DNA of 64,000 bases from Minisyncoccota bacterium (GCA_965222715.1 OZ244961.1:462277-526276), one strand, 5' to 3'; counted from the stretch's first letter, positions 419-36,212 are shown. Notes: generated by a model from the letters alone, not told the origin. Numbers and translations: made by a program.

Positions 419-511
419 AGATTTTTTTTGAAGCCACAACTTATGTGGCACTCACATTATGAGTATAGCATATTCTCAAAAATATGCAACCCCTCCCCCT
501 TATACACAATA

Positions 512-2719: not shown

Positions 2720-2763
2720 GATTGTCTACAACTGTACCACCTTTCACTCCCCTATACCAGGCG

Positions 2764-3729: not shown

Positions 3730-3905
3730 TTGGCTACCCTTTAATTGGTAAAGTAATTAGTAAAGTGTATTCACTGTAATATATGTCTTGATTAATTAAT
3801 ACAGTATAACCTTTTGTATCACACAAAAGTTATATGGAAGAACTAGTTCATCTGATATTTTAGACGTATAGGAAATAGACCTCCTATCCCCTATAATCAG
3901 AAAGC

Positions 3906-5150: not shown

Positions 5151-5157
5151 GTTAAAC

Positions 5158-5868
5158 TTACTTTAGTAAATTTAAAAGTTTTTCTTTAATCTTTTCTAGA
5201 GATGTTTTTTCCTTCTCAAAGACAACAGTAAATATTTTTCTAACTACATTTTCTGGACACAACAAAGGCTCGACTGCATGCCAAGAATGATTCGTTCGAG
5301 TAAATAACAAGCTATAATTCTCACGATACGGGACCAGAATCTTTTCTGGAAAATCAGAAATGTCTGGCGCCGAATCACAGTTGAATTTTTCTTTATCATC
5401 TAAAATTATTGTCTCTCCACCCCACTCTTCTTCCCAGTTATCATCTGCGTTGAAATAAAATATGTGTGAACCCAACTTATTCTTACTATCACAATGAGGA
5501 GAAACAGAGCAGCCATTTACCGAATATTGCCATTGAAATCGCATATTGAAATTACGTGTACCAAACAGTCGCTCAACTTGAGTGCGGTATTCTCCTTCAC
5601 CTAACTCTCTTATAAATGAGTTCCATTCTTTAGAAACCCCAAGACTCTTCTCATATTTTAATTCATAACGATTGTGTGGCTTCTGACCATAGCCACGTTC
5701 TATGTTAAACGTCTTTGTAAAAAGAGAAATATCTGGAAGATTTTTTTCCAATTCATTAAAACCCTCCTTTGTGATTAAGTGCCTAAACACATGCCACGGA
5801 TATGGCTTTTTGCCTCTATATTCATCTCCAGAAATAGAGCTAAGTTTTGTGGTATCTATAAATTTCAT
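5158..5868 (-). CDS. 2OG-Fe(II) oxygenase superfamily protein
   Basis: H-x-D (SPHCDSK) ... H (HSWHAV) facial-triad arrangement in a ~230 aa soluble protein. Confidence 0.4.
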   Translation of the reverse strand: MKFIDTTKLSSISGDEYRGKKPYPWHVFRHLITKEGFNELEKNLPDISLFTKTFNIERGYGQKPHNRYELKYEKSLGVSKEWNSFIRELGEGEYRTQVERLFGTRNFNMRFQWQYSVNGCSVSPHCDSKNKLGSHIFYFNADDNWEEEWGGETIILDDKEKFNCDSAPDISDFPEKILVPYRENYSLLFTRTNHSWHAVEPLLCPENVVRKIFTVVFEKEKTSLEKIKEKLLNLLK

Positions 5869-6641
5869 GCTCTTTCAAAAATGTAGTTTTTGACCCCATT
5901 ACCTAATTCAAATTCATTAACAACATTGAAACTGTACTTTTTTACAATTTCAAATATTTCTTTTTTTTTCTCATCTTCAATTTCAATAAGCAAATGTTTA
6001 AGATTTTTATGAGCAAGTGTATTTTTGGCACCATTAAGTACATTAATTTCTGCACCATCAACATCAATCTTTATCATTGTTGGAATTGGAATATTAAAAA
6101 TACGTACACACTCATCAAGACTCATGACTAATAACTGTTGAGTACATGCATCTTTTTTCCTTTGGAATTCACTGAAAGTATGTGTTGCCCCCGAGGAGTT
6201 ATCGTCTAAAGAAAATGATTGAATAATGTTACCTACACCTAACACAAATGGAAGAGGTGTTATATTTCTATTTAATTTGTTAAGGAATATATTATCTTGA
6301 AGCGTTTCTATGTTTTTATACGACGGTTCAAACGCATAGACTTCTATCCCCAAAGATCCAGCAATGAGACTGTATGCACCGATATTTGCACCGATATCAT
6401 AAAAAACAGATTTTTTTTCACCACAAGATTCAAGCCAATTCACTGTCTCAGGTTCTTTTTTAACGCTATTTGCTCGAGTGTAGTATTCACGTAATGTCTG
6501 AGTTGTTATGTATATATCTTTCTTTGCATAATCAAGCTTTCTTACACCATACCAATGGCTTACAAGGCGCTTTATTTTAAAAACACCTAATAAAAATTTC
6601 CATTGAATTTGTTTAATTATAGCCATAAATATGCTATACAC
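5865..6641 (-). CDS. FkbM-family SAM-dependent methyltransferase
   Basis: VFYDIGANIGAYSLIAGSLGIEVYAFEPSYKNIETL matches the FkbM motif. Overlaps the upstream gene by 4 nt. Confidence 0.6.
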   Translation of the reverse strand: MYSIFMAIIKQIQWKFLLGVFKIKRLVSHWYGVRKLDYAKKDIYITTQTLREYYTRANSVKKEPETVNWLESCGEKKSVFYDIGANIGAYSLIAGSLGIEVYAFEPSYKNIETLQDNIFLNKLNRNITPLPFVLGVGNIIQSFSLDDNSSGATHTFSEFQRKKDACTQQLLVMSLDECVRIFNIPIPTMIKIDVDGAEINVLNGAKNTLAHKNLKHLLIEIEDEKKKEIFEIVKKYSFNVVNEFELGNGVKNYIFERA

Positions 6642-6658
6642 TATAGCATAGCGGTACC

Positions 6659-7543
6659 ATGAGAGTACTTACCAAAGAACAAAGAGATTTTTTTCATAAA
6701 AATGGGTATCTTCACCTAAAGAGTTTTTTTACACAAGAGGAAGTGGTGAGTTTCAGAAAAGGATGTCAATTAGACAAACCTGGTGATTCTATGTGTACAC
6801 AAGAATTTAGACACATCATGTTTTCACCTAAAATTATTGGTGTCATGAAAGACATTCTTGGAGAAGAAATTATTTATCCAGGACTCTCTTTAACTCGTAC
6901 AGGAGATTCTCCAAAGAAAGTAGGTAGTCGCAAGTTTCATGCCGATACCGAAGGAGATGATCTAGAGTTCTCTCATCCCTACCCAGTGATTAATACTGGG
7001 ATCTACCTACAAGACCACAAGAACTATAGTGGGTGTCTTAAAATAAGTCCAGGTTCACATAAGTGGCCATGTGTACTTACAGAATCAATTACTCAATCTC
7101 TTAAATTAATTATCAAAAGTCTTCTTAGAGGAGAATTTAAAAAAGCCTATAACATACTGAATTTGCATAAATCAGTGAATATACCATCAGAAGCAGGTGA
7201 TCTGATTATTTGGTATGTTCGCACACATCATTCAGGATATGGCGTGCGACTTAAATTTTTTAAAAATATCTCTCTTCCACCCGTAATTGAAAATTGGATA
7301 CCTTCTTTTTTGCGACTTCCTGATAATCCGAAGCGCGATGTTATGCTCTCAATATTCACTGCACCAAGTAAATATTTAGAAGAATATATTAGAGTACAAA
7401 TTAACAAAGACCGCCGCATTAATCACTACCTACATAATAAATGTCTAGATTCCCCTAAAATACAAAAAATGGCAGAGGAAGCTGGGATTGTAATTCGGAA
7501 CGATGGGTATTATAGAGCATTAAAAATAAATTCTAAGTCCTAA
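6659..7543 (+). CDS. Phytanoyl-CoA dioxygenase (PhyH)-family 2OG oxygenase
   Basis: N-terminal LTKEQRDFFHKNGYLHL. HxD (KFHADTEGDD) plus distal His (GSHKWP, HHSGYG). Confidence 0.45.
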   Translation: MRVLTKEQRDFFHKNGYLHLKSFFTQEEVVSFRKGCQLDKPGDSMCTQEFRHIMFSPKIIGVMKDILGEEIIYPGLSLTRTGDSPKKVGSRKFHADTEGDDLEFSHPYPVINTGIYLQDHKNYSGCLKISPGSHKWPCVLTESITQSLKLIIKSLLRGEFKKAYNILNLHKSVNIPSEAGDLIIWYVRTHHSGYGVRLKFFKNISLPPVIENWIPSFLRLPDNPKRDVMLSIFTAPSKYLEEYIRVQINKDRRINHYLHNKCLDSPKIQKMAEEAGIVIRNDGYYRALKINSKS

Positions 7544-8259
7544 TTTTCTTTTCTTATATAAACAAATAAACCAGCTGAAAAAAGTCCCGGCAAAATTTTA
7601 TTGAGGATAGGCACACCTTTATAGGAATATATTTTGTAATTTGTATACTGCTGTGCATTAAGCCACCATTTCATATCATTAAATGTCCAGAATCGTAAGT
7701 GTTCTGAAGGTGAAATTGACCACTGAGCTGGGAACTTACCAAACAGTAGACGCAGACGATAAGTAATGTACCCTGAGTTGGGAACCGAGAAAAAGACCGC
7801 TTTTTGTGATTTTCTATACGCCTCTTGAAGTGTTATCTCTGCACTCGGGATATGCTCGAGCACTTCAAATAAAAGATATATATCTGCTTCTGGCAATTTC
7901 TTAAAGTCTTCTTTTGAGACAATATTACTGTGAAAAGTCTTAATGCCTAATTTTTCCACCAAAGAAAGAGCAACTTCTGAAATATCAACCCCAATAACAT
8001 TGGTGAGCGATCTCTTTTTTTTAAGAAAATATAACAACCCCCCATCGCCACACCCAATATCAACCACGCTTGGATCTTCATTTTCCTTAATATATTTTTG
8101 TACAAATCTCACCCGCTCAACCTGCCAGTCATTTAAACCTGGTTCTCCATCAGGTCTTCGTGAAAGCCAGTAGTTATCATTGTTTTGCGTATCCTCTTGA
8201 GATATTTTCTTTTTGGGATAGAGGAAAATATCTTTTATGGTTTTTTTTAGTAGATGCAT
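7540..8259 (-). CDS. Class I SAM-dependent methyltransferase
   Basis: Motif I VVDIGCGDGGLLYFL. Confidence 0.6.
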   Translation of the reverse strand: MHLLKKTIKDIFLYPKKKISQEDTQNNDNYWLSRRPDGEPGLNDWQVERVRFVQKYIKENEDPSVVDIGCGDGGLLYFLKKKRSLTNVIGVDISEVALSLVEKLGIKTFHSNIVSKEDFKKLPEADIYLLFEVLEHIPSAEITLQEAYRKSQKAVFFSVPNSGYITYRLRLLFGKFPAQWSISPSEHLRFWTFNDMKWWLNAQQYTNYKIYSYKGVPILNKILPGLFSAGLFVYIRKEN

Positions 8260-8281
8260 ACTCTTTCTATAATTCTGAATA

Positions 8282-9751
8282 CTACTTTAGCTCATTTTTA
8301 TATGTAATTGACTCTAATACATTTTTTAACAGTACTTTATTAGAACCAAACAATCTATCTTTGCGTTTTTCTGTAACCTCTTTTGGGGTCTTATAGAGAG
8401 CTTCAATCTTAAAACAAATATTTTCCAAGTTCAACCAATCAGCCAGATCATTAGCCACCATGCCTTCACCATAATCTGACGATGTTTTGAGCAAGGCAAT
8501 TGGTTTTTCGTACGCTATAAGATCATATAATAAAGTGGAGTACACTCCAACCGCTACGTCAACTTGGGCTATCGCCTCTTTCATATCTTCTAAAATTAGA
8601 ACACTAGTGTCCCCAGTAAGGTTGTATTCATCAAGCTGTTCCTTTTTTGAAACACCTGGCTTAACTTTAAATATAAGTTGAATATTAGAGCAGTTTTTTA
8701 AAGCATCAATAAAATGTAGTACTTCTTCTCTAGGAATTTCTGATTCGTACGGGATGAGTACACGAATCTTATTGTTTATTTTTCCCACCTGCGAACTCTT
8801 CACTTCTCTTTCTTGGGCTGCTACATGAAGTTCGTCATCCGTAAAATACGTACCAAGTCGCTTTAGTTCATCTTTCCAGTATTCACTCCACAGATACAAA
8901 ACATCAGGTTTTATTATCTCTCCACTAAAAGAATCATTTGTAAGATATCCTACATGGTACTTAGTAAAATGTCCGTGCTGAAAGGCGTATGTTGGTATAT
9001 TATTTAGCTTACATGCAAGTATCAACTCATAATAATTTCTTACATCATCTATGGTAAATAGAGTTTTTATATTGGATAGTTTTATAATCTTAGTCAAAAT
9101 TTTTACCCTAAAAATAAAAAAAGGGATTCTGTTGAGATAAGATAAAATTATTGGTTCAAACAACTCTTTCTCTTTTTTTGAGATATTTTGAGGATATATT
9201 AAATCACTTTCTTTTACCTTCTCTTCTGGTTTAAGAATATGAAAAAAAGAAAGTATTGAAAAAACAAAATCGATAGACTCTAAATAGATTGCTGGTCGTA
9301 ATCTTTTAAATATATTTATAATAGACGTTTTACTTGGTATGGTATGAAAAAACTCGACGTATTTTATAGAATTTTCGTCTAAGAAAGTGTAAACGCTCTC
9401 CAGTCTCATGTCGTTCCGTGAAGTTTTTGAGCTCACTTTGTCAACGGAGTATACACCTACTCTCCTTTTTGAAATTACAAGGAAAACTACGGAGAAAAAA
9501 GAATATGCCGCAAGAAAAATGTGTAGTAAAAAAACACGGCAATATCCTAAAAGACTAAAACTGGTATGAGCATCTTTTCCTGTCCTCAACTCATTAAATA
9601 GTAATGTGACCTGAAAACAATGCCAAACATTATATTTCCCATATAACACAAAGGATGAAAGTGGGTTATTTCTATACCTAACTTTATTTAGTTTTGCAAG
9701 TTGTTTTAGAGCTCTTTTTAGGTCGAGTGATTTCTTGGAAAAGTATTCCAT
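8282..9751 (-). CDS. Hypothetical membrane-anchored polysaccharide-biosynthesis protein (possibly TagF/capsule-synthesis-like)
   Basis: 489 aa. N-terminal hydrophobic segment. C-terminal region has YAFQHGHFTKYHVGYL. Family assignment is uncertain. Confidence 0.3.
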   Translation of the reverse strand: MEYFSKKSLDLKRALKQLAKLNKVRYRNNPLSSFVLYGKYNVWHCFQVTLLFNELRTGKDAHTSFSLLGYCRVFLLHIFLAAYSFFSVVFLVISKRRVGVYSVDKVSSKTSRNDMRLESVYTFLDENSIKYVEFFHTIPSKTSIINIFKRLRPAIYLESIDFVFSILSFFHILKPEEKVKESDLIYPQNISKKEKELFEPIILSYLNRIPFFIFRVKILTKIIKLSNIKTLFTIDDVRNYYELILACKLNNIPTYAFQHGHFTKYHVGYLTNDSFSGEIIKPDVLYLWSEYWKDELKRLGTYFTDDELHVAAQEREVKSSQVGKINNKIRVLIPYESEIPREEVLHFIDALKNCSNIQLIFKVKPGVSKKEQLDEYNLTGDTSVLILEDMKEAIAQVDVAVGVYSTLLYDLIAYEKPIALLKTSSDYGEGMVANDLADWLNLENICFKIEALYKTPKEVTEKRKDRLFGSNKVLLKNVLESITYKNELK

Positions 9752-9820
9752 GGATATTTTATAAACTAAATTTTGAGTACTATCAAATGCCCTTCTATTT
9801 AGTGTATACTAAAATTTATT

Positions 9821-11614
9821 ATGTGTGGTATAAACGGCTTTAACTGGGAAGATGCTCGGAAAATAGATAGCATGAATGCTTCGACCAAACACAGAGGTCC
9901 GGATCAAAGCGGTCAGTATGTAGGGGGTCGCGTTAGCCTTGGTCATAATCTCCTCTCTATACGTTCAACATCAGAAAAATCCAAACAACCATATCTTAAA
10001 AACAACTCTCCTTGGGTGCTTGTTTACAATGGGCAACTATATAATACAAAAAAAATGCAAAGGGAGTTAGGGTCAAAATACAAAGATGAAGAATTGGATA
10101 CAGCGCTTTTGTTCGGGATGATAGAAAAACATGGGTGGAATTTTATATCAAAAATACAGGGGATGTTCTCTGTCGCACTCTTTAATACAAGAGAAGAGAA
10201 AATCTGTTTGTATCGGGATCCATCAGGTCAAAAAAATTTATATTATTATTATAAAGATGGAGTTTTTATATTTAGCTCTGAAATTAAAGGTATACTGAAT
10301 TCTCATTCAGTAGATATGTCTATCGATGAAGAAGCTGTTGCTATTGCTACAAGTCTCGGGTACATTCCAGGAAACAAGACACTTTTTAAATATATACATA
10401 AATTAAACCTTTCAGAAATCATAAGCTTTGACATAAGAACAAAAAAAATATCCAACAAAATTTATACTAGTCACACAGAAGATTATTATGTAAATACTAC
10501 TAATGTTTTCACTGATCTTGTTACTGAACATCTTCAAGGAAGAGAAAAGACTTCCTTAAACTTGAGTGGTGGATTAGACTCATCAATACTTCTACACGAA
10601 ATGAGCGGCCTAGAAAACGAAGTTTCTACTTATACAAACTTTTTTGAAAATGCGCCAGATATTTATAATGAGGACGCTTTGCTTGCCAGGAAACTCTCAA
10701 AAAAATATAGCACAAGACATACTGAGATAAATATTACAAAAAAGAAATATTTAGAAAACTTAATTGATGCTTATAGCGCTATAGAAGAGCCGAATTACAA
10801 TATAAGTAACCCATCCTACCTATGTACTGCAAAAATAGAAGGGCTGGGTGGTGACGGCAATAGAGTTATATTATCAGGTGATGGTGGAGATGAGTTGTTT
10901 GGAGGATATGAATATTACTTAAAAAATAGAGAAATGGAATATCAACAGGCCATATTAACATCTTTTATATTTAATATTATTAAAAATAAAAGAAATAAGA
11001 CTTGTCTTAATTTTAATAACAGTGTAGATAGATGGTTTTTTTTCAAAGATTTTTATAAAAAATATTTACTTACGCCGCAACACCTAAACACTTTAGCTTA
11101 TCTACATGAAATAACTAAAGAGCTTTTTGAAGTGTATGGAATAAAAAAAGGTTTTGTATATGAATGCATGCTTATGGATAGGTTTATATGGCTTGGTGGC
11201 GAAAATTTTATTAGGTCAGATAAACTATATATGAGTCAGTCAGTTGAATTACGATCTCCTTTTGCTTTTCCTCCACTCAGAACACATTTTGATAAGAAGC
11301 TTACAGTAAATGAATATATAGATAAGGAAGTAAATAAAAAATATATCCGAAAACTATACGATGGTGTACTACCAGACTTTATCCTTAAAAAAGAAAAGAA
11401 AACTGGATGGAGAAACCCTTTAGAATTTTGGTATGACCCTGAAATAAAAAATAAATTTTTAGAAATAATAAGTGACGTAGAATCAAATAAAGCTATTGTG
11501 GACTGGAAAGAAATTAGAAAAATTATAGAAAGATCAGATAGCTGGCCAGGGAAAAATATACATATCTACCTTTCAATAGCTATTCTTTCAAGAAAATTCC
11601 GTGTCTTAATTTAA
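9821..11614 (+). CDS. Asparagine synthetase (glutamine-hydrolysing)-like amidotransferase, AsnB family
   Basis: MCGINGF N-terminal Cys2 class-II GATase. PP-loop SGGLDSS. 597 aa. Confidence 0.75.
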   Translation: MCGINGFNWEDARKIDSMNASTKHRGPDQSGQYVGGRVSLGHNLLSIRSTSEKSKQPYLKNNSPWVLVYNGQLYNTKKMQRELGSKYKDEELDTALLFGMIEKHGWNFISKIQGMFSVALFNTREEKICLYRDPSGQKNLYYYYKDGVFIFSSEIKGILNSHSVDMSIDEEAVAIATSLGYIPGNKTLFKYIHKLNLSEIISFDIRTKKISNKIYTSHTEDYYVNTTNVFTDLVTEHLQGREKTSLNLSGGLDSSILLHEMSGLENEVSTYTNFFENAPDIYNEDALLARKLSKKYSTRHTEINITKKKYLENLIDAYSAIEEPNYNISNPSYLCTAKIEGLGGDGNRVILSGDGGDELFGGYEYYLKNREMEYQQAILTSFIFNIIKNKRNKTCLNFNNSVDRWFFFKDFYKKYLLTPQHLNTLAYLHEITKELFEVYGIKKGFVYECMLMDRFIWLGGENFIRSDKLYMSQSVELRSPFAFPPLRTHFDKKLTVNEYIDKEVNKKYIRKLYDGVLPDFILKKEKKTGWRNPLEFWYDPEIKNKFLEIISDVESNKAIVDWKEIRKIIERSDSWPGKNIHIYLSIAILSRKFRVLI

Positions 11615-12468
11615 TGAAAAAAACCTTTATACAGACAAATAATAAACAGTTGCTCGGTGCAACCCTTGCAAAATATGCGATACAGAAGAATGCGACTCAA
11701 CCAATTGTAGTCGAGATTATTAACGTGGATGAAATTGATACTTTCAAAAAGTTCTCTGGTAAATCTTTTTTGAGAAACGGTAAGGAGCGGGTCTATGACT
11801 CAACTGATTTGCAATCTTTTACTATTTCACGATTTATGCCCCCAGAACTTATGGGGTTTTCTGGTAAGGCGATTGTTATAGACCCTGATATTTTTATATG
11901 TGAAGACATACATCAGTTGTTCAATACAGACATGCAAGGTCACGCTATTATGGCTTGCAAGAAAGGAAACACTTGGGACACTAGTGTTATGATGCTCGAC
12001 TGTAAACAGCTAAGACACTGGCGTGTCGAGGATATTATTTCTCGTCTTTCAAGTAAAGATCTTGATTATGCTGATTTATTTAAACTTAACTATGAGAACT
12101 CTAAGGGTATGATTTTAGAAATGTCTCGCGCATGGAATAGTCTTGATAAGCTTAATGGCGATACAAAAGCACTACATACAACAAATCGACTAACGCAACC
12201 GTGGAAAACTGGTTTACCTATAGATTTTACAAGAAATAAAATGCCAAGGTTTCTTGGAATAATTCCCCGAGAGTTAATACATAAAATCCTTGGTAAGTAC
12301 AATACACACTATCTCCCGCACCCTGACAAAAAAATTATTGAGTTCTTCTTTGCCCTTCTGCGAGAAGCCCTTAAGGAAAAAGTGATCACGGAAGATTTTC
12401 TACATAGAGAGATTAAACTAGGTCACGTACGAAAGGACATGTTTAAAGAACTCAAAAACTTTAAATAA
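11614..12468 (+). CDS. Hypothetical protein, possible GT-A-like nucleotide-sugar transferase (DPD motif)
   Basis: Start ATG overlaps the upstream stop (TAATG). Contains KAIVIDPDIFI, which resembles a DXD motif. No firm family. Confidence 0.3.
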   Translation: MKKTFIQTNNKQLLGATLAKYAIQKNATQPIVVEIINVDEIDTFKKFSGKSFLRNGKERVYDSTDLQSFTISRFMPPELMGFSGKAIVIDPDIFICEDIHQLFNTDMQGHAIMACKKGNTWDTSVMMLDCKQLRHWRVEDIISRLSSKDLDYADLFKLNYENSKGMILEMSRAWNSLDKLNGDTKALHTTNRLTQPWKTGLPIDFTRNKMPRFLGIIPRELIHKILGKYNTHYLPHPDKKIIEFFFALLREALKEKVITEDFLHREIKLGHVRKDMFKELKNFK

Positions 12469-12472
12469 AATA

Positions 12473-13375
12473 TTATTTCTCAACAACAATCCAAATATAA
12501 TCCTCTCTTCCAAGCAGGTGAATGATCTTTCTCAACAGAGATCGTAAAACATTTTTCAAAAATCTTTTTATACCATTTTCTTTCACTGGCTCAATATTAT
12601 TGTTTTCTTGAGACATGCTATGGTTTACTTGATTAAACTTACTCTCATCATCACCCATCCCAATTTTAAATAATAATTCACGAATACTTTGCGTGTATGA
12701 TACAAAATCTCTTTTCCCCGAAGCAACGCTTGTAAAACCAACCTCTTCAAGTAATTTTTGTAAACTTACTGGAGTAAAGTAAAAAAGGTGTTCAGTATAA
12801 ATAAGGTCATGCTTGTAGTTAAGTCTTTCGAGTATATACGAATCAATATTTGGAGTTTCAATGAGTAACCTATCCCCCTGTTTCATAACATCAAATATTT
12901 TCTTTATAGAATCAATAGGGTTATCAAGATGCTCAATTACATGAAAGAGAGTGAAAGTGTGTACTGTATCTTCAGTAAGTATTTCTCTTAAATTGTTTAG
13001 TGTTCCATACCTAACATCTAAACTATTTTCCTTTGCAAACCCTGATGCCTGATTACTTGGCTCAATACCTATTCCGTCTTTATACCCCTTTTCTTTTAAA
13101 GCCTTAAGGAATATTCCTTCTCCTGAACCAATATCACATACAGAATTAAAATCTACATACTTCCTCATCCTCTTTATACGATCAAAAGAATTGAACATCC
13201 TGTCACGTATTTTTATTTCATCAAGCCTTACTAGTTTTTGAGTATAGTGCGATTCAGGTATATCAAAAGATTGTCTCCACACAAGACCACACCTACCACA
13301 CCTGAACATAGGGAGGTCGTTCATGGTTGTAGAAGAGACTGATGAAGTCTCACATATTGGGCATTTATTACTCAT
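12473..13375 (-). CDS. Class I SAM-dependent methyltransferase with N-terminal zinc-ribbon
   Basis: CPICETSS...CGRCGL zinc ribbon. Motif I VCDIGSGEGIFL. Confidence 0.6.
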   Translation of the reverse strand: MSNKCPICETSSVSSTTMNDLPMFRCGRCGLVWRQSFDIPESHYTQKLVRLDEIKIRDRMFNSFDRIKRMRKYVDFNSVCDIGSGEGIFLKALKEKGYKDGIGIEPSNQASGFAKENSLDVRYGTLNNLREILTEDTVHTFTLFHVIEHLDNPIDSIKKIFDVMKQGDRLLIETPNIDSYILERLNYKHDLIYTEHLFYFTPVSLQKLLEEVGFTSVASGKRDFVSYTQSIRELLFKIGMGDDESKFNQVNHSMSQENNNIEPVKENGIKRFLKNVLRSLLRKIIHLLGREDYIWIVVEK

Positions 13376-14507
13376 GCTTCTTTATAAAATGAATTAAATC
13401 ATCAACTTCCTTGGTTACCATTTCAACTGTAATGGATTCCGTTTGCCTTAGAGCTTCGTCTTTATTATACCCTCGTGCATTCAGAATATGTAATTCAGGC
13501 TTTTCTCGATCTGTTGGTATTACAACTCGATGTATATCGCTTATTGGCGGCTGCTCTTTTTCATCCATAGGACCAACAATATCAATAGTTGGCACGCCAA
13601 ATGCTTCCGCAATGTATATTGGGCCAGTATCAACGCTAATAAATAGACTTAGTTTGCTTATCAGTGCTTTTGTTTCATCAATTGACGAACCGGTTGTATC
13701 TATATATTCAACATCTTCAGTAAGTTTATTCTTCATACCTTCTGAGTACACCCCATCATTTGGTCCACCAATAATTAAAATGAGTGCGTTATAGTTTTTA
13801 GCAATATAATTTCCCACTTGTGCAAAACGTTCAATTGGCCATTCTTTAATTTTATTACCAACTGAAGGAGATATACCTACTAACAACTTTCCTCTATGTT
13901 GGACGAGTAATTGTTCAATTTTTTTATCAGCCTCAGAGGAGAAAGATAGGTATTTTTTTGTGTTCTTTGAAAGGATATCAAGTGGCTCAAGAAGTCGTAG
14001 TCGCTCTTGTGGAGCATACGCACCAAACCTAAAATCTTTGGTTACAACAAAATGAGAGAGAAGGGTATATGTGCGAGTAATTATTCCCCTACCCCCAACA
14101 GCAGTTGGGGTAATAATAAAGGGGGTGTCGGACAATATTGCTATCACCAAAGAAATGAAGTCAGGACCTACAACGACGCATACATCAAATTTCTCTTTTT
14201 TAACTTTTTTACTGAAACGTAATATTCCCTCCTTTTCATTGAATACAAAATAGGTGTCAACATCTGTATTCCCATCAAGAAGACTTTTATTAACACCATC
14301 ACCAATAACTCCTATTTCAGAAGATGGGTATTTTTCTTTTATAGCTCGAAATACTGGCGTGGTGCACACCATATCTCCAAGCTTCGCTGTCTGTATAACA
14401 AGTATTTTTTGTGGACTAAGAGACTTTTTATTTCTATGGTTAAAAAACACATGTACTAGTGCAAGAGTGAATAGGAATATATTTCTTAATTGAGCCCATA
14501 TTTTCAT
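13368..14507 (-). CDS. Glycosyltransferase family 9 (ADP-heptose:LPS heptosyltransferase-like)
   Basis: KILVIQTAKLGDMVCTTPVFRAIKEKYP is the canonical GT9 N-terminal motif. Confidence 0.6.
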   Translation of the reverse strand: MKIWAQLRNIFLFTLALVHVFFNHRNKKSLSPQKILVIQTAKLGDMVCTTPVFRAIKEKYPSSEIGVIGDGVNKSLLDGNTDVDTYFVFNEKEGILRFSKKVKKEKFDVCVVVGPDFISLVIAILSDTPFIITPTAVGGRGIITRTYTLLSHFVVTKDFRFGAYAPQERLRLLEPLDILSKNTKKYLSFSSEADKKIEQLLVQHRGKLLVGISPSVGNKIKEWPIERFAQVGNYIAKNYNALILIIGGPNDGVYSEGMKNKLTEDVEYIDTTGSSIDETKALISKLSLFISVDTGPIYIAEAFGVPTIDIVGPMDEKEQPPISDIHRVVIPTDREKPELHILNARGYNKDEALRQTESITVEMVTKEVDDLIHFIKKHE

Positions 14508-14528
14508 ATCCTGATAATAATATAATTT

Positions 14529-15209
14529 TTACTTTTTCAATATAAAATGAAACGTATCGAAGTAAAAAAAACGTGCAAATATATATACTGGTATCGCTAT
14601 ATATCGAAATACACCTAAAGACTTTTGTATTTTTAACAACCGTATATCTAAAACCAAGAAGCCAACATCGTGCATTTTTTGCTTGGCGCGAGTAAATGTG
14701 TCGTAGTACATCTCATCTAAACGTTGTCTACCTGATCTATCTGAATAGTATTTATGTTTTCCAAAAAGTGATATGAATGAGCTCGACATAAAACGTGGAA
14801 TCCAATTTACAAAATATAAATCAAAATGTGGATCTTTGAAACAAAATCGATTTGGCACACTTATATATGCACACCCATTGCTATCAAGCACTCGATAAGT
14901 TTCTTTTAGTAACAACTCTGGATCAGAAACATGTTCAATAACCTCAGCAATATTTATAAAACCAAATTTTTTATCAGAAAAAGGGAGGTTTTCTGCTTTT
15001 CCTTCAATTAAAGTAATTTTTAGACCTTCTCTAGCAGCAACCTCTTTTGTTTTTTTAATATTTTCTGGGTTTATCTCTAATTCAACAACATTACCCCCTT
15101 TTTTACTAATATTTAATACGAAATCGCCTTTACCAGAACCAATATCAAGTATTTTTCTATCCAAGAGATCTGGTATATGTTCTGTGAGGTTTTCTATATG
15201 TGTTTTCAT
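14529..15209 (-). CDS. Class I SAM-dependent methyltransferase
   Basis: ILDIGSGKGDFVL motif I. Confidence 0.6.
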   Translation of the reverse strand: MKTHIENLTEHIPDLLDRKILDIGSGKGDFVLNISKKGGNVVELEINPENIKKTKEVAAREGLKITLIEGKAENLPFSDKKFGFINIAEVIEHVSDPELLLKETYRVLDSNGCAYISVPNRFCFKDPHFDLYFVNWIPRFMSSSFISLFGKHKYYSDRSGRQRLDEMYYDTFTRAKQKMHDVGFLVLDIRLLKIQKSLGVFRYIAIPVYIFARFFYFDTFHFILKK

Positions 15210-15212
15210 AAT

Positions 15213-16310
15213 TTATTTCAAAAAAGAAGTGACATGTTTTACCCTTTCGTTCCAAGTAAATGACTGCACTGCTTTATATGCGGCTGCAGTCTTATCTTTT
15301 GATTCTTTTTCATGTCCTAAAACCCATCGTACTGAATTTGCAAAAGACGTGTAGTCATCTGCTACCGCAAAGTAGACTGTTTCTTCAGAGAGAACCTCAC
15401 GCATACTCGGTAAATCTGAGACGACTATTGGCACTCTTGATGCCATGTGAGCAAATACTTTCAGTGGCGAAGTGTAGAGGCGTGATATTTCACTTTTACC
15501 TGAATTTGGAATAACCAACACGTCTGCTGTTTTTTGATTATACGGCAAATCACGATATGGGAGTGAGCCAAGAAATAGTACGTCTTTATATTTTTTCTTG
15601 AAGTAGTCTAACTGACTTCCCTCGCCAATAACAGCAGTTTGTGTATTTTCAGGGAATTCTTTTGACGCCTTTAGTAGTGTCTCAACACCTTTCCAGGGAT
15701 CAAGTCGTCCAATATACATCACTATTTTTTTATCTTGTGGTAAACCAAGCTTTTTTTGTATTTCTTTTTTATCAACCTCTACATCAAACTCCTCTACATC
15801 AACTCCATCATGTGCTACTAAGATATTTTCTTCAGGTACTTCTTTTTTAATATAGAAATCTTTAAGTCCTTGAGAAATAGTAATTATTTTCTGTAAGCGT
15901 TTTAAGAGTAGCTGAGAGAAGAAATTATTTCGAGGCATGTGTATTTCCCACACTAAATTTCTTCTAATAAAACTAAGTGGCCATAACACAACGTCTTCCC
16001 GTGAATAAATAATGTCTACTTTTTTAAAAAGAACGTATAAGCTAGCAAAAAAAGAAAAACTTATGATTTGGACTAAAAAACCGAATTTACCCAACCAAAC
16101 AAAATCAAGAGATGGGAGTTTTGTGATTTTAAAATTTTTTTTGATATTAAAGTAAGAAAAAGGATTTTCTTTTATGTGATTAAAACGCCACGGAGCAACT
16201 AACGTTACTGTATGTCCTTCTTCCACAAATGCTTCGCACATTTTCATAATTTGAATACCGTGAGCCTTCTCTGTTGGAATACGTGCGTTTGTTAGATAGA
16301 TAATTTTCAT
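15213..16310 (-). CDS. Glycosyltransferase family 4 (GT-B)
   Basis: N-terminal MKIIYLTNARIPTEKAHGIQI. C-terminal GT1 domain. Confidence 0.6.
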   Translation of the reverse strand: MKIIYLTNARIPTEKAHGIQIMKMCEAFVEEGHTVTLVAPWRFNHIKENPFSYFNIKKNFKITKLPSLDFVWLGKFGFLVQIISFSFFASLYVLFKKVDIIYSREDVVLWPLSFIRRNLVWEIHMPRNNFFSQLLLKRLQKIITISQGLKDFYIKKEVPEENILVAHDGVDVEEFDVEVDKKEIQKKLGLPQDKKIVMYIGRLDPWKGVETLLKASKEFPENTQTAVIGEGSQLDYFKKKYKDVLFLGSLPYRDLPYNQKTADVLVIPNSGKSEISRLYTSPLKVFAHMASRVPIVVSDLPSMREVLSEETVYFAVADDYTSFANSVRWVLGHEKESKDKTAAAYKAVQSFTWNERVKHVTSFLK

Positions 16311-18133
16311 ACTATAACGTTATATTTTTTTACCCAAACTTGAAAAGAGATGAGTGCCCAAAGAATAGTTAGGTTATATTCTCTTTTATCGTAATGTGCG
16401 TCAAGCATATTCTGGATTTCAGACCAATTAAATAAATTCTGTGTTGATGTATGATAAGTAGGTGAAAGCACTTCTTTTGCAAGATTATATACCTCTTCGT
16501 ACCGAAGCCATTTGGCACCAGGAGAAAACCATCCACGCTTTGGTTGTGTAAATAAGTATTCCGGCAAACGACCTTTGAACGCTTCTTTCAAGATAACTTT
16601 TGTATCCCTAAGAGTAATTTTTTGGCGAACTGGAATAATGTGAGCAAAAGACACTGTGTTTGTATCAAGAAGTGGAACACGAGCTTCCAGCCCAAACGCC
16701 ATAGACATTTTATCTGTACGAAGTAACGACTCGTCAACCAGCCAACTTCGTATATCGATATCCATTAGTAACGCCTCAGGTGATACCCCTTTTTCTTTTT
16801 TAAAGTACTTATTAGAAAAAAATTCTTTTGTACGACTATTTACGTATTTATGAGCAATAACTCTTTTTAAAACCGAGTCTTTTTGAAACATAAAAAGTTC
16901 AAATTGATCAATCCCCTCCTCAGTGTTTAATTTTCTAGCTATAGAAAAATAAGAAAGCATTTTCCGCAGGGAACTGGGTATACACTTTTGATACAGTGAC
17001 ATAAAATATGCAATCCGATACCGTTCATACCCACCAAAAAGCTCATCCCCGCCATCGCCCCCAAGTACAACATCGACCCCTTCATTTTTTACAAACTCGG
17101 CAAGCTTATACTGAGCAATAAGTGTTGGATTTGCTATTGGCTCATCAAGTTGATAAATAGCTTCTTTGAGCGCATCTACCACATCAGTGTGAGAAAGTAA
17201 CACTTCATGATGTTGTGTATGATATTTTTCAGCGGTTTTGCGGGCGAGGTAAAAATCTTTATTAAATTTCTCTGATTCTTCATCTTCTTTTAAACTAAAA
17301 CCAATTGAAAACGTTTGTATATCTTTACGTAGTAATGACATAACATCAAGAACGATACTGGAGTCAATCCCACCAGAGAGATATATACCGACCGGTCTAT
17401 CAGACACAAGTTGTCTTTTAACGCTTGATGAGATATTTTGTCGCACCTCCTCTTTTGTTACTTTTTTTACCACTTTACTCCCATCTAAAGAGTAGTATCT
17501 TTCAATCCTTAATTCATTATTTGAGAGGGTTCCTTTGTGTCCAGGTGGTACTTTAAAAACATCTCTAAATAATGTTAACGGCTCGGGAACATAGAGTACC
17601 CGAAAATAATGCTCAAACGCTTCTGTATTTAATATCCGGGGTATATTGTGTTCTAAAACACCTTTTATTTCAGAAGAAAATATAAACACTCCCTCCTTAA
17701 AATAGTAATACAGAGGTTTCACCCCAACCTGATCACGTGCAAAAAACAACTCTTTTTTCTTTACGTCCCAAATTGCGAATGCAAATATCCCGTTAAATCT
17801 ATCAACACACTTACTTCCCCACCTCTTATACGCAGCGAGTACAACCTCAGAATCACTCTCCGTCCGAAATACATAAAAATTTTCCAACTCACTTCTTAGC
17901 TCTTTAAAATTATAAAGTTCTCCGTTGTACGTAAGTATAATCTCTTTATCTTCACTATACATAGGTTGGTTCGCCTCTTCAGAAAGATCAATAATGCTCA
18001 AGCGATTGTGTCCAAGAGAGATTTTTTCATCAGTAAAAATTCCTGTACCATCAGGACCTCGATGTTTTGTAACGCTATTCATTGCTGTAATAAGCTCTGC
18101 GTCCTTAAAATTAAATCCGTTTATTGCGCACAT
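16307..18133 (-). CDS. Asparagine synthetase-like amidotransferase, AsnB family (second copy)
   Basis: MCAINGF plus SGGIDSS PP-loop. 608 aa. Overlaps the downstream GT4 by 4 nt. Confidence 0.75.
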   Translation of the reverse strand: MCAINGFNFKDAELITAMNSVTKHRGPDGTGIFTDEKISLGHNRLSIIDLSEEANQPMYSEDKEIILTYNGELYNFKELRSELENFYVFRTESDSEVVLAAYKRWGSKCVDRFNGIFAFAIWDVKKKELFFARDQVGVKPLYYYFKEGVFIFSSEIKGVLEHNIPRILNTEAFEHYFRVLYVPEPLTLFRDVFKVPPGHKGTLSNNELRIERYYSLDGSKVVKKVTKEEVRQNISSSVKRQLVSDRPVGIYLSGGIDSSIVLDVMSLLRKDIQTFSIGFSLKEDEESEKFNKDFYLARKTAEKYHTQHHEVLLSHTDVVDALKEAIYQLDEPIANPTLIAQYKLAEFVKNEGVDVVLGGDGGDELFGGYERYRIAYFMSLYQKCIPSSLRKMLSYFSIARKLNTEEGIDQFELFMFQKDSVLKRVIAHKYVNSRTKEFFSNKYFKKEKGVSPEALLMDIDIRSWLVDESLLRTDKMSMAFGLEARVPLLDTNTVSFAHIIPVRQKITLRDTKVILKEAFKGRLPEYLFTQPKRGWFSPGAKWLRYEEVYNLAKEVLSPTYHTSTQNLFNWSEIQNMLDAHYDKREYNLTILWALISFQVWVKKYNVIV

Positions 18134-18137
18134 GTTT

Positions 18138-18569
18138 TTAGAATTTGTTGAGTAAATTAATTCCGTAAATAAAGAATTTTGCTCTACTTGGGCTTGTGTA
18201 GTGTCGTATCACAACTTCATTAGTCACTGGTCCCTTAATTAAGTAATGTTTTGTGGGAAGTATTTTTAAATTCTTAAGTATTGTGGCATAGCATGCTTGA
18301 TCAGTAAATTTTTTATGCATGTAATCTGTTTTTGCCAAGTAAGAAACGAAAGTATCAAAATCAAAGTTCTCGCGATTGTATAGCACAATACCTGAGTTAG
18401 CATTTGCTACCCTCTCGGATGTTTTGGTTCCATCCTTAAACTCAACATGTATGTATACATCTTCACCATTAGACATCATGAGAGACCTTTCAGCACCACG
18501 TTCAACCTCTTTATCAATTTCTATTGGTTGATGAAACCAAAGAATATCTGAATCTAGGATAAGTAACAT
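18138..18569 (-). CDS. Hypothetical protein with DXD motif (LILDSDILWF); possibly the C-terminal part of a disrupted glycosyltransferase
   Basis: 143 aa. An adjacent 91-aa ORF (18755-19030, same strand) may be the N-terminal part of the same gene. Confidence 0.3.
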   Translation of the reverse strand: MLLILDSDILWFHQPIEIDKEVERGAERSLMMSNGEDVYIHVEFKDGTKTSERVANANSGIVLYNRENFDFDTFVSYLAKTDYMHKKFTDQACYATILKNLKILPTKHYLIKGPVTNEVVIRHYTSPSRAKFFIYGINLLNKF

Positions 18570-19032
18570 TTTTTTGTCAGAAACAAAATACGGATCAATG
18601 AGTTTCTTTGATTGAAATTTTGTATATGTTTCTCGAAATTTTTTTAAAGTTGGATACGCGTTAAGTTTCTCTCCGTGTATTTCTAAAAAAGTATTGTTAT
18701 CAACAATAGTAGAAGACGGGAAGAGTCTTTTAAATATCTTCTTATCTTCCCTACTTAAAGTTCCATCATTATGTAAAAAAGCTTTCCGATTGACTGGGCA
18801 ACACTATAATAGGAGGCAAGAGACCAAAGAGCAATTAAAAAATCTTGATGGCCAGTGAGCATATGTATTGATAGATCACCATTCGTAATAGGTTTTTCAA
18901 AAGATTTTTTTGATTTCAGAATTCTTGGTGCAACAATATATCTCTGCCAAAGGAAAAAGAAACCTCGTCGTATACCATACAGAGAGAATGCCAGTTTTAT
19001 ATAAAAAATTTCACGCTTAATTTTTTTCATAG

Positions 19033-20016
19033 CTATACTATATGTTTGGAAAGAAGTTGTATAAGTTTTTGTAAAGAATGTAGCTCAACAATGTAGCTTC
19101 TTGTCTCCTTTTTGCTATTTAGCGCTTCGGTAAAGCTGTGGTTTACAGGATATTCGGTATCGTTAAAAGCCTCATTGGTGGTATAGACCGGTACATTCAT
19201 TGAAAGTGCTTCAAGAACAGCCTTATCAAGGCTCCCAGTAACGCTAAGATTAATGAATACTTTCGCCTTCGCATAAAATGGTGGTAATTCACCTTGTGGC
19301 ACATCACCAACTATTTCAACTTGATTATTCAATTCTCTCTGTTCTACCTCATTCAGAAACCTATCTCTATATATAAAATCTTCTTTAGTAACAGGTGAGC
19401 CAACAATGACTAGCTTAAAAGAAGGATAGTCCTTAAGTATATCAAGCATCTTAATAATTTGTTTTGACTCTGAAATTCGACCAACTGTCAAAATAGTGTC
19501 GTCTTTTCTGTTAGAATACTTCTCTGGAGAAAATAGTGAAGTGTCAATACCATGCCCAACAACCATAACTTTCTTACTCTTCAGACGAAAACTTTTTTTA
19601 GATGCTGTGAATATAGTATCCACAAACCCCTCTGCAACACGAAGTGAGAATGTTACTGACTTATGCGTATACCAGATGGAAATTTTTTTACCCAAAATTC
19701 TCCACAACAAACCACCGAGAATAACGTACACTTGATTCATATGCACAAAAATTGAATCGTATTTTTTACGTTCTTTCCATATATAACGATAAAAATTATA
19801 TATGTATTTTAATCGTGAAACTCCACCCTCTTTACCCAAAGAAAGTACCTGAACGTTTTCAGGAAGTGTGTACTCACCCTTCTCTAAGCAGATCACAATA
19901 ATGGATTCACACTGTGTTGCAAACTCTTCAATCCATCGGTGGAAAAAGCCGAGAATTGGATCGTTCTTGTCTACTTTCTGTGTACAAATTAAAAGCTTCA
20001 TAGTGATTCCTGCCAA
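19033..20016 (-). CDS. Glycosyltransferase family 4-like
   Basis: 327 aa. GT-B C-terminal region. Confidence 0.5.
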   Translation of the reverse strand: MAGITMKLLICTQKVDKNDPILGFFHRWIEEFATQCESIIVICLEKGEYTLPENVQVLSLGKEGGVSRLKYIYNFYRYIWKERKKYDSIFVHMNQVYVILGGLLWRILGKKISIWYTHKSVTFSLRVAEGFVDTIFTASKKSFRLKSKKVMVVGHGIDTSLFSPEKYSNRKDDTILTVGRISESKQIIKMLDILKDYPSFKLVIVGSPVTKEDFIYRDRFLNEVEQRELNNQVEIVGDVPQGELPPFYAKAKVFINLSVTGSLDKAVLEALSMNVPVYTTNEAFNDTEYPVNHSFTEALNSKKETRSYIVELHSLQKLIQLLSKHIV

Positions 20017-33474: not shown

Positions 33475-33747
33475 TCATGATCCCCTCCCCAGCGAACCAA
33501 ACGCGTCCGGGTCATCAGCTTGTTGAATCAAGGCTGAAATAACCATGAGGGCATCACCGTATTTCTCGTCCCCGTAAAGCTCGCTGAAAAGATGTGCAAG
33601 TACGGATTTGTCGTGACCAGAAAGAGGTCGAGCATCCGGATCATGTGTTACTCGATACCCTTCTGCAAGCTCATTAACACGAGCTTGAAATTCTTCTTGA
33701 TCGATACTCATGAGTTCCTCCTTTTGGAACATCAATTTTTTAACCAC
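33475..33747 (-). CDS. Hypothetical small protein
   Basis: ORF only. Confidence 0.3.
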   Translation of the reverse strand: MVKKLMFQKEELMSIDQEEFQARVNELAEGYRVTHDPDARPLSGHDKSVLAHLFSELYGDEKYGDALMVISALIQQADDPDAFGSLGRGS

Positions 33748-33834
33748 TGTGACTATAGCACAGAAAAATAAAAAATCTAGGTGTTTGTATGTTGGGTAAC
33801 AATAACGTTTAAAGCTGTATCAGGTACTTTCCAA

Positions 33835-34030
33835 GGTGCGGATGCCAAGACTCGAACTTGCCTCCCTGCAGGAGCTGTACACCTTGTCGATATTTTCAGA
33901 GAACATATCTGGCAAGGTCTTGCGAAGCTTCAAGTATTCGCTTCTCACCTCGTCATTATCAGGAGAAACGACATGCGTTTCTCCGCTCTACGCCTGAGCA
34001 CAAGTGGTAGAGCCTTCAAGCTCATTGAAA
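33835..34030 (-). other. tRNA-like remnant: partial duplicate of the tRNA-Ile anticodon-loop/3'-half, interrupted by a ~90 nt insert
   Basis: Minus strand contains CTGATAATGACGAGGT ... GGAGGCAAGTTCGAGTCTTGGCATCCGCACC. This is near-identical to tRNA-Ile positions 32-73, but with a ~90 nt insert between the anticodon stem and T-arm. An upstream GCTCAGG..TAGAGC D-arm-like segment is present. No clean acceptor 5' strand. Confidence 0.3.
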
Positions 34031-34034
34031 TCTA

Positions 34035-34108
34035 GTGCGGATGCCAAGACTCGAACTTGGGACCTCGTCATTATCAGTGACGCGCTCTAACCACCTGAGC
34101 TACACCCG
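34035..34108 (-). tRNA. tRNA-Ile (anticodon GAT)
   Basis: GCGGGTGTAGCTCAGGTGGTTAGAGCGCGTCACTGATAATGACGAGGTCCCAAGTTCGAGTCTTGGCATCCGCA folds as a canonical cloverleaf. CCA is not encoded. Confidence 0.85.
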
Positions 34109-34496
34109 CAAAGTACAGCACATAGTAGCAAAATGAGTCTATAATCTCAACGCCTAGCAGATAACTTAGTGAGTACTTGAAGAATCTTGCAGTATTTGCT
34201 ACCCTCCCTAATGGAATAACCCTAACCTAATTGGAGGCTTTTCGTGTGTCAACGATATAGTGGAAGAAACCATATCCCGCAAGATCAAGGTACGTCGCGT
34301 GAAAACGGAGGTGGCTGCTCCGTTGCCGGCAAGGAAAATAAGTGCCAAGGCAAAAAGAGACTGCCTCGGAAGAGAAAGCGGGACCAAGCATCGAGACCGA
34401 GGAGCGGCTCGATTCTTCAGGCACATTGGGCATGAATACAACAACCGCGCAGATCAGTGATCTGCGCGGTTTCTCGTTACAGCTATCACGGATAGA

Positions 34497-34535
34497 AATA
34501 AAAAACGCCAAAGGTACCTTTGGCGTTTTTTTACG
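34497..34535. terminator. A-run / CGCCAAAGGTACCTTTGGCG hairpin / T-run (bidirectional-terminator-like) inside the 16S-to-tRNA-Ile region
   Basis: Perfect 20-nt palindrome flanked by A7 and T7. Confidence 0.4.
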
Positions 34536-34749
34536 GCTCTGTAGAGCCATTTTTATTAATATACTTTCTTTTGTTCCGTTCAATCTCCAAGTAACGCACT
34601 TCTTGGTTAGCGAGTGTAGCCCCGATATGAAATCGGGACTCCGACAGAACCGTCGGAGATAAGAGTACAACACTATTGCTCTTTCCATGCTCGTACGAGG
34701 CATAGAAGATCGACCGGTTAAGTTGTATACCGTAGTACACAACGTCTCC

Positions 34750-36212
<1,463 letters not shown>

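Follow-up and report, generated by a model that had tools for sequence, protein, structure and literature searches.

A 64,000-nt stretch of DNA from a Minisyncoccota bacterium (GCA_965222715.1 OZ244961.1:462277-526276; the whole stretch is referred to as the window) holds an intact tRNA-Ile(GAT) gene that is followed by a second, degenerate tRNA-Ile-like element. Our analysis indicates that this element is probably an inert relic of a tRNA-Ile duplication or replacement, which would be co-transcribed with the intact, live gene as its trailer and which carries palindromic insertions that arose at the DNA level. Since related defective copies are found next to or around this tRNA gene in other bacteria of the Candidate Phyla Radiation (CPR), this reading is favored over two others that had been proposed in an earlier sequence-only reading, an intron-containing tRNA gene and an integrase attachment site. 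Coordinates for the tRNA-Ile locus refer to the minus strand of the window.

Anatomy of the degenerate copy

A second element with tRNA-Ile parts had been reported downstream of the intact gene, and it is present as two exact repeats. A 16-nt block of the live gene, CTGATAATGACGAGGT (34077-34062), is repeated at 33962-33947, where 0.05 matches with up to two mismatches are expected by chance, and AAGTTCGAGTCTTGGCATCCGCAC (34058-34035) is repeated at 33859-33836, with a chance expectation of 0.00. The latter block is extended by its preceding C, so that 25 of 25 positions are identical (33860-33836). The repeats lie ~75-200 nt downstream of the live gene, with starts that are 115 and 199 nt apart. 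The features of the locus are as follows.

34150-34122, minus: promoter-like TTGAGA-17-TACTAT 5' of the live tRNA-Ile, read from the sequence
34109-34035, minus: live tRNA-Ile(GAT), CCA not encoded (ARAGORN; Rfam tRNA model, 69.5 bits)
34034-34014, minus: 21-nt spacer between the live tRNA and the pseudo-copy, unrelated to tRNA
34013-33985, minus: hairpin hp1, GCTCTAC (34013-34007) paired with GTAGAGC (33991-33985) in the minimum free energy fold
33999-33984, minus: D-arm-like remnant GCTCAGGCGTAGAGCG, tRNA positions ~10-26 by alignment to the tRNA
33984-33962, minus: palindrome hp2, a perfect 9-bp hairpin of 23 nt, GGAGAAACG-CATGT-CGTTTCTCC (fold and hairpin scan)
33962-33947, minus: exact copy of the anticodon loop, the anticodon-stem 3' strand and the start of the variable loop, CTGATAATGACGAGGT
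33946-33861, minus: structured 86-nt insert of three hairpin units, interrupting the variable loop and T-stem
33860-33836, minus: exact copy of the T-arm (minus its first stem base), the acceptor 3' strand and the discriminator, CAAGTTCGAGTCTTGGCATCCGCAC
33835-33822, minus: ancestral 3' flank CTTGGAAAGTACCT, common to the outermost relic fragment of a syntenic Paceibacterota locus (L001)

The D-arm-like segment and the insert of '~90 nt' noted earlier are thus both found, the insert measuring 86 nt between the blocks. Its units are P1 (GAAGC/GCTTC), P2 (ACCTTG/CAAGGT around GATAT/ATATC) and P3 (CTCC-TGCAG-GGAG). The 9-bp hairpin had also been recognized correctly, but it does not stand beside an intact anticodon stem; it takes the place of that stem's 5' strand, CGTCA, and this replacement is the hallmark of the pseudo-copy family described below. 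One arm of hp1 is an inverted local copy of the 3' side of the relic D-stem, and the hairpin encloses the D-arm-like GCTCAGGCG; its counterpart in a related locus (L008) is GCGCTCTAA / TTAGAGCGC. The element folds more stably than its shuffles (z -2.9), and its arrangement in the window is a plain tandem without inverted-repeat flanks.

The flanks of the two copies suggest how they are related. The spacer that forms the 3' flank of the live tRNA differs from the ancestral flank retained after the pseudo-copy, and, as read from the sequence, AAAGTAC (33830-33824) after the relic is complementary to GTACTTT (34116-34110) directly 5' of the live tRNA. This complementarity would fit a history in which the 5' side of the original gene has passed to the live copy and the relic represents the 3' side of that gene.

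The element does not form a tRNA

The element was not called as a tRNA gene by any search at standard settings. ARAGORN found only the live tRNA in its default mode and in the intron mode (-i, default thresholds) that had been suggested as a check; lowering the thresholds to 50-60% yielded spurious calls only, including a 'permuted tmRNA' (transfer-messenger RNA), and no such RNA was reported under default settings. In Rfam, searched at E<=10 over 33600-34800, nothing matched the element, and RF00005 had no match in 33835-34034. The absence of a pairing acceptor 5' strand had been noted correctly: GCGGGTGTAGCTCAGG, the partner of the 3' strand CATCCGC, occurs once in the 64 kb at up to three mismatches, in the live tRNA, and the sequence 5' of the D-arm-like part reads CTACCACTTGT. 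The 5-bp anticodon stem is not formed either, as CGTCA is replaced by GAGAAACGCATGTCGTTTCTC and no complement to TGACG is present. Because hp2 takes the 5' strand of this stem, deleting both inserts would still give no cloverleaf; with the acceptor 5' strand lost, the anticodon-stem strand replaced and the T-arm region split, the element can neither adopt a cloverleaf nor be charged. Partial identity to an intact neighbor, combined with loss of parts essential for folding, instead agrees with the pseudo-tRNA that was among the candidates first offered.

A genuine tRNA gene of unusual build (multi-intron, split or permuted), matured by splicing, is very improbable here. The D-arm-like, anticodon-loop, T-arm and acceptor 3' pieces do occur in the correct order, and tRNA genes of Patescibacteria commonly have group I introns (PMC13011429). 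However, the two 5' strands remain missing once both inserts are removed, the parts are colinear rather than permuted, and the window has no second 5' half. No group I or II intron or small ribozyme was matched by Rfam in 33600-34800 at E<=10, or in the inserts of four related loci (L025, L028, L021 and L023) at E<=1; a single sub-threshold group II match, in L028 (311-402, E 0.08), is well away from the insert of that locus. At 23 and 86 nt, the two inserts are much too short for a group I intron. Moreover, the introns in the published survey are at anticodon-loop position 35/36 of tRNA-Asn and tRNA-Asp, and a term search of it found no tRNA-Ile(GAT) case (PMC13011429). Within the limits of sequence evidence, both an intron-containing and a permuted tRNA are excluded.

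Archaeal disrupted tRNA genes resemble the element in having interruptions at non-canonical sites (D-loop, anticodon stem, variable loop or T-arm). They differ in that the host here is bacterial, no bulge-helix-bulge boundaries are seen, removal of the inserts restores no tRNA, and an intact tRNA-Ile lies alongside.

Homologous relics in other CPR bacteria

The window is CPR/Patescibacteria DNA: its RsmI homologue (32745-32053) has its best named relatives in Candidatus Kaiserbacteria and Paceibacterota, and the host is a small-genome bacterium of the CPR. An exact look-up of the RsmI protein gave no record, and a protein with 100% identity to it is on a 617-kb contig. Related loci were obtained through RsmI homologues, which led to a syntenic Paceibacterota genome (L001/L002), and through pattern scans for 'TAGAGCGG-hairpin-CCTGATAAT', which added three GTDB genomes (L008-L010, one labelled Saccharibacteria) and 11 JGI or ENA metagenome contigs (L020-L030). 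Homologous relics are present at tRNA-Ile loci with the common core GCGCGTCACTGATAATGACGAGGTC, in 15 fetched loci (L001/L002/L010, L008, L009 and L020-L030), of which ~12 are distinct sequences since L001, L002 and L010 are duplicates and L020 overlaps L026. Whenever the fetched DNA includes the live tRNA-Ile, the 42-nt core of this tRNA is that of the window's gene, and its acceptor and T stems alone differ.

The partial copies in these relatives include 5' fragments that end at tRNA positions 17-21, 'modules' in which TAGAGCG is followed by a palindrome and then by CTGATAAT and onward, and 3' fragments that start at positions 33, 36-41 or 50 and grow more degenerate with distance. The relics are ragged, being cut at tRNA positions 17-21, 38-41, 43-51 and 62, and they are either tandem or nested. 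In the nested form (L001, L022, L023, L025, L026, L028 and L030) the live tRNA, together with inverted-repeat flanks that extend its acceptor stem, lies inside an older copy, and in L001 and L026 the enclosing copy is itself within a still older one. The acceptor alleles of the outer layers differ from that of the live gene, as in L026, where paired GCGCGAT... and ...GTCGCGC surround a live tRNA with GCAGCTG. Inverted flanks in the nested arrays (e.g. L001 4940-5330) are 14-55 nt long, and their host sites are the D-loop, anticodon loop or T-arm of disabled copies. Dead copies in L026 (~1495-1515), L028, L029 and L030 have small inserted GC-rich palindromes, such as CTGCCTGCCGGCAGGCAGG, in their D-loops and T-loops (D-loop regions in L029 and L030); the same palindrome is seen in two separate metagenome loci and twice in L028 (2556-2576 and 2986-3003).

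The syntenic relative identifies the ancestral end of the gene. L001 has the order SecD-SecF-16S-tRNA-Ile-...-RsmI-DUF4015-TrwB-LTD/PKD, the same gene block as in the window, and its outermost relic agrees with the window relic in its T-arm (CCAAG/CTTGG), its acceptor strand and its 3' flank, CATCCGCAC-(C/T)TTGGAAAGTACCT. The T-stem of the live tRNA in L001 differs from that of this relic. Because these parts are shared with the outermost relic of L001, the 3' end of the window relic and its flank correspond to the end of the ancestral gene.

In the comparison with related loci that had been called for, homologous relics occur in loci of the same tRNA-Ile allele family (~12 other sequences) and plain tRNA-Ile loci occur in relatives with other alleles at similar RsmI distance (L031, L035, L037 and L039). 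The RsmI homologues closest to that of the window (P0002-P0004) are on short contigs that carry no tRNA-Ile. The distribution is sporadic, with three GTDB species recovered by the strict pattern and 11 metagenome contigs by the relaxed one.

In seven relatives (L001, L009, L022, L023, L025, L026 and L030) the leader and trailer flanks of the live tRNA are complementary, with z values of 4.6-9.8 relative to shuffles, and the inverted flanks abut the tRNA ends within 2 nt (6 nt in L022). Transition mismatches in these flank helices are 10 G:T versus 1 A:C on the sense strand (binomial P ~0.006), a bias that points to a putative RNA processing helix formed in the transcript. The live tRNA-Ile of the window has no such leader-trailer helix (z 0.1).

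The palindrome and the insert

The replacement of the anticodon-stem strand takes a regular form. There are 19 distinct versions of hp2, all in place of the same five bases, that start with GG..AA, end with TT..CC and have stems of 8-14 bp. When 18 versions were trimmed to nine basal pairs and aligned (162 cells), 98.8% of the cells were paired as compared to 71% in shuffles; 41 cells were changed on both sides and none on one side only, no G-U pairs were present, and sliding the partner by one column reduced pairing to ~54%. Some versions are symmetric through their centre (L026 upstream and L001 downstream). This regularity is partly forced, as the search patterns demanded TAGAGCGG and CCTGATA and, in part, the base of the stem; nevertheless, a module found by adjacency only (L025 upstream, GGGCAAAAG...CTTTTGCCC) follows the same rule. 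Quasipalindrome template-switching is an established mechanism in which one palindrome arm is copied onto the other, and paired double changes without G-U intermediates are what it would yield. The near-perfect Watson-Crick pairing, the lack of G-T intermediates and the centre-symmetric versions are features shared with such template-switch products and with repeats similar to repetitive extragenic palindromic (REP) elements and miniature inverted-repeat transposable elements (MITEs). The differences are that hp2 has no repeat family in the window, none of the perfect hairpins elsewhere in the 64 kb being hp2-like (no dispersed MITE/REP-like copies there), and that its position in the tRNA copy is fixed; the mechanism proposed here is inferred.

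The 86-nt insert had been viewed as a possible intron, and instead it is a conserved insert common to three other loci. It is homologous to inserts in the same relic region of L025, L028 and L021 (nhmmer E 1e-14 to 6e-21), with pairwise identities of 52-75%, and an older degenerate copy lies in the 16S-tRNA-Ile spacer of L028 (L028:1941-2024). Two of its stems covary between loci, P2 as ACCTTG/CAAGGT versus AGGTTGT/ACAACCT and P3 as CTCC/GGAG versus GAATC/GATTC. A further pairing proposed by RNAalifold, CGAGGT/GCTTCG, showed no covariation and was not relied on. The insert matched no Rfam family, and no strand-specific RNA signal was found in it, as its sense and antisense strands fold equally well. 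The adjoining 16-nt anticodon-loop block is identical at 16/16 positions in the relics of the window, L025, L028 and L021. With regard to neutral decay, the tRNA blocks are free of mismatches and both the hairpin and the insert show conservation between loci, yet the copies are ragged, sporadic and without a strand-specific signal.

These patterns bear on the idea that the element is a functional structured RNA, either a tRNA-like non-coding RNA or a cis part of the tRNA-Ile precursor that acts as a processing scaffold, as a folding competitor for the tRNA 5' acceptor strand or as a decoy for a protein that reads the anticodon loop. Co-transcription is probable, as no terminator-like site was found between the live tRNA-Ile and the pseudo-copy, and in relatives the terminator follows the whole array rather than the live tRNA. 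The fold that is more stable than shuffles, the compensatory changes that conserve the hairpin and insert stems, the invariance of the 16-nt block beside a diverged insert, and the RNA-biased leader-trailer helices of the relatives also argue for a function. On the other hand, no complete fold is conserved: the window and L008 lack the acceptor 5' strand and the other relics are cut at many positions. The stems are entirely without G-U pairs, folding energies do not differ between strands, the distribution is sporadic, similarly related genomes with other tRNA-Ile alleles lack the element, and the window lacks the leader-trailer helix. We regard a functional RNA as unlikely.

Tests for mobility and integration

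No integrase or transposase was detected by Pfam in the window open reading frames (ORFs) tested (5868-33747 and two ORFs beyond the 16S gene; the scan did not extend to 1-5868 and 38300-64000), and none was found beside 11 related loci. The neighbors at the related loci are unrelated housekeeping genes encoding ClpB, ribonucleotide reductase, an MFS transporter, a Rieske oxygenase, a Na/Ca exchanger and toxin-antitoxin pairs. The strict hairpin pattern had no matches among viral contigs; nine viral contigs matched by the relaxed pattern proved to be chance matches in coding sequence with no hairpin or tRNA. A blastn search against phages and plasmids matched only the live-tRNA part.

In a mobile origin, the element would stem either from a self-propagating tRNA-Ile cassette that replaces resident genes or from a site-specific palindromic, MITE-like insertion into spare copies, and the window element would be a disrupted resident tRNA-Ile gene. 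Consistent with this idea are the nesting in seven relatives with repeats that extend to the junctions, the foreign acceptor alleles in the outer layers, and the GC-rich palindromes resembling CTGCCTGCCGGCAGGCAGG in relic D-loops and T-loops of L026 and L028. The same 42-nt core also occurs across CPR class labels, while genomes at comparable RsmI distance have other cores. However, neither a transposase or integrase nor a target-site duplication was found (junctions were read in the relatives), and the insertion points vary (17-21, 38-41, 43-51 and 62), so the process is not site-specific. The RNA-biased mismatches in the inverted repeats would be expected of a processing helix more than of transposon ends, no further copy of hp2 is present in the 64-kb window, and the arrangement in the window is a plain tandem without inverted-repeat flanks. 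A mobile origin appears improbable.

The sequence-only reading had also raised an attachment (att) site duplicated by an integrase targeting the tRNA 3' end. The form of the repeat supports this, as it is direct and runs from the anticodon loop to the 3' end; the rest does not, as the copies are separated by 21 nt of unrelated spacer in place of an intervening element, and no integrase was found. In its fullest version, this explanation holds that the element is the attR scar of tyrosine-integrase recombination in the anticodon loop, the integrated element having since been deleted. Besides the repeat shape, which resembles that of anticodon-loop att sites, it gains from the ancestral 3' flank retained by the relic, from the differing DNA between relic and rsmI, and from published evidence that tRNA gene fragments commonly originate through integration (PMC9897764). 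The rsmI interval (33830-32750 in the window) varies among relatives, with ~1.1 kb of small ORFs here, Fur-Zip-YibE_F in L001 and nothing in L028. However, the live tRNA and relic are only 21-75 nt apart here and 14-45 nt apart in relatives, no integrase gene was found in any of the ~12 loci, and the window lacks a third repeat. The upstream 5' fragments and inverted-repeat nesting of the relatives are not integrase products, and the junction is on no viral contig. Integrase scarring matches the shape of the repeat and fails on every other point, and we consider it quite improbable.

The att repeats left by integrative elements at tRNA genes are likewise direct, extend from the anticodon loop to the 3' end and leave the original 3' flank after the displaced copy, but in known cases they bound islands of ~9-120 kb that have an integrase; the window repeats are 21-200 nt apart, and neither island nor integrase was found. 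The relatives here differ further in having 5' fragments, nesting and a conserved palindrome at the junction.

In the window, the interval between relic and rsmI contains a 78-aa ORF (ATG at 33710, AGGAGG), two overlapping membrane-like ORFs and two hairpins (33186-33157 and 33131-33106); the small ORFs downstream of the relic belong to no Pfam or PHROGs family. An integrated island further downstream was considered and rejected. The low-GC stretch at ~4000-20000 (32-35% versus 42-50% elsewhere) encodes glycosyltransferases, methyltransferases and two asparagine-synthase-like proteins and is a surface-polysaccharide cluster in which no mobility genes were seen, and the TrwB-like ATPase belongs to the RsmI-DUF4015-TrwB-LTD/PKD block that is also in the relatives.

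An inert relic as the most probable explanation

Taken together, the raggedness of the copies, the foreign outer alleles, the sporadic distribution, the lack of a conserved complete fold and the symmetric, DNA-level palindromes lead us to read the element as a dead copy. Under this explanation, the original gene would have spanned the present leader to the present trailer beyond the pseudo-copy, and a second tRNA body would then have been created or inserted, leaving the live gene on the original 5' side and the relic with the original 3' side and its 3' flank. The promoter-like site at 34150-34122 is likely the start of a transcript that spans both tRNA-Ile and the pseudo-copy; given this site and the lack of a terminator before the relic, transcription most likely makes the relic the 3' trailer of the tRNA-Ile precursor, and cleavage at the tRNA 3' end would release this trailer for degradation. 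The perfect palindromes presumably reflect quasipalindrome template-switching on DNA rather than selection on RNA, and short-tract copying between the direct repeats may keep the exact tRNA blocks identical to the live gene. Like tRNA pseudogenes that arise by tandem duplication, the element is a truncated, uncharged and non-foldable copy beside its parent that is probably co-transcribed. It differs from them in that its decay is not one of scattered point mutations; instead, blocks of 100% identity alternate with wholesale palindromic replacement, and this replacement recurs across CPR classes.

Several observations weigh against an inert relic. The same five bases are replaced, with the same GG..AA/TT..CC base, across the CPR labels Paceibacterota, Saccharibacteria and 'Patescibacteria group'. 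A shared palindrome site and base would be odd for random decay; the agreement is partly forced by the search patterns, and the one unforced case (L025) agrees. The 16-nt block is identical in four relics, while the adjoining insert is only ~62% identical. Because this block is bounded by non-homologous DNA on both sides and is short for ordinary gene conversion, it may be under selection. In addition, the insert stems are kept through compensatory changes, and in the relatives the live tRNA lies exactly between inverted repeats within a relic.

These last arrays raise the broader idea that the window element is the simplest form of an undescribed CPR 'tRNA-in-tRNA' system, in which the live tRNA-Ile sits on the tip of a leader-trailer helix nested in disabled, palindrome-bearing copies. 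Such a system could be a tRNA gene that spreads by insertion or replacement, as a mobile cassette without its own recombinase, or it could be a composite precursor in which the dead outer tRNA serves processing. We view membership of the window element in such a system as speculative. A parallel is offered by intervening sequences (IVSs) and processing helices of rRNA, as the inverted-flank helix of the relatives projects from a loop of the host RNA gene with its cargo at the tip, and an IVS of this kind, with two tRNA genes in it, is present in the 23S rRNA of the window. The tRNA-Ile case differs in that the host is a disabled tRNA copy and that the tRNA-Ile of the window has no helix.

Partial tRNA genes beside tRNA genes are known products of element integration and confuse tRNA annotation (PMC9897764). 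The window copy is a tRNA pseudogene or fragment that matches neither this description nor that of the group I introns. We found no literature on pseudo-tRNAs in Patescibacteria or on these tRNA-Ile relics, and a term search of PMC13011429 found no mention of the latter; the nested arrays of the relatives appear undescribed.

Setting of the locus

The genes on the minus strand are ordered tRNA-Pro, 23S, 5S, ~9 kb of protein genes, 16S, two terminator hairpins, the promoter-like site, tRNA-Ile and the element. The remaining features, identified in Rfam/ARAGORN and related feature scans, are as follows.

49666-45934, minus: 23S rRNA
45885-45778, minus: 5S rRNA; the 23S-5S pair is ~10 kb upstream of the tRNA-Ile locus
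36210-34751, minus: 16S rRNA
34531-34500 and 34471-34443, minus: two terminator hairpins that separate 16S from the promoter-like site

The element had been placed in the slot normally held by tRNA-Ala in 16S-Ile-Ala-23S operons. This is not such an operon, as the 23S-5S genes lie far upstream, terminators follow 16S and tRNA-Ile has its own promoter-like site; with the rRNA genes unlinked, there is no tRNA-Ala slot here.

The rRNA genes have features of their own. The 3' end of 16S (34765-34751) reads GGAUCAAUUCCAAU in place of GGAUCACCUCCUUU, as it does in L001 (3684-3698), so that the canonical anti-Shine-Dalgarno CCUCC is missing; AGGAGG nonetheless precedes nearby genes, for example at 33722-33717 before the ATG at 33710. 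The 23S gene has an IVS-like insertion at 48420-48055; within its long stem, cttgtgaatttcattgagga / tcctcaatgaagttcataag, lie a small ORF and two minus-strand tRNA genes (48261-48186 and 48166-48089). Excision of these tRNAs would leave the 23S rRNA fragmented, and a literature description of tRNAs within a 23S intervening sequence was not found. The tRNA at 48261-48186 (Rfam 61.9 bits) has the anticodon loop TTAAAAC, which leads ARAGORN to read the anticodon AAA (Phe); the bacterial Phe anticodon is GAA, so AAA is unusual.

Among the relatives, L028 has an unusually long spacer of 2.6 kb (109-2735) between the 16S 3' end and tRNA-Ile, and its 16S match is compressed, with model positions 1337-1533 within 108 nt. 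In L008, a LAGLIDADG homing-endonuclease ORF (4208-4855) is ~800 nt from tRNA-Ile and is probably inside an rRNA intron.

Implications

Fragments like the window relic can be mis-called as tRNA genes or introns, and here a sequence-level test makes clear why the relic is not one. CPR bacteria have tiny genomes, yet layered wreckage is tolerated around a single-copy essential tRNA gene. The regularity of this wreckage, with the same palindromic replacement, a shared insert and a nested live gene, points to a specific DNA process at the locus; candidates are template switching at hairpins, recombination with imported DNA and a recombinase-free mobile tRNA cassette. The window copy itself is of modest interest, and the nested arrays of its relatives are of higher interest. 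If these arrays are mobile or functional, they would show that tRNA genes can spread or mature by a new route; if they are neither, they would be a clean natural record of tRNA gene turnover.

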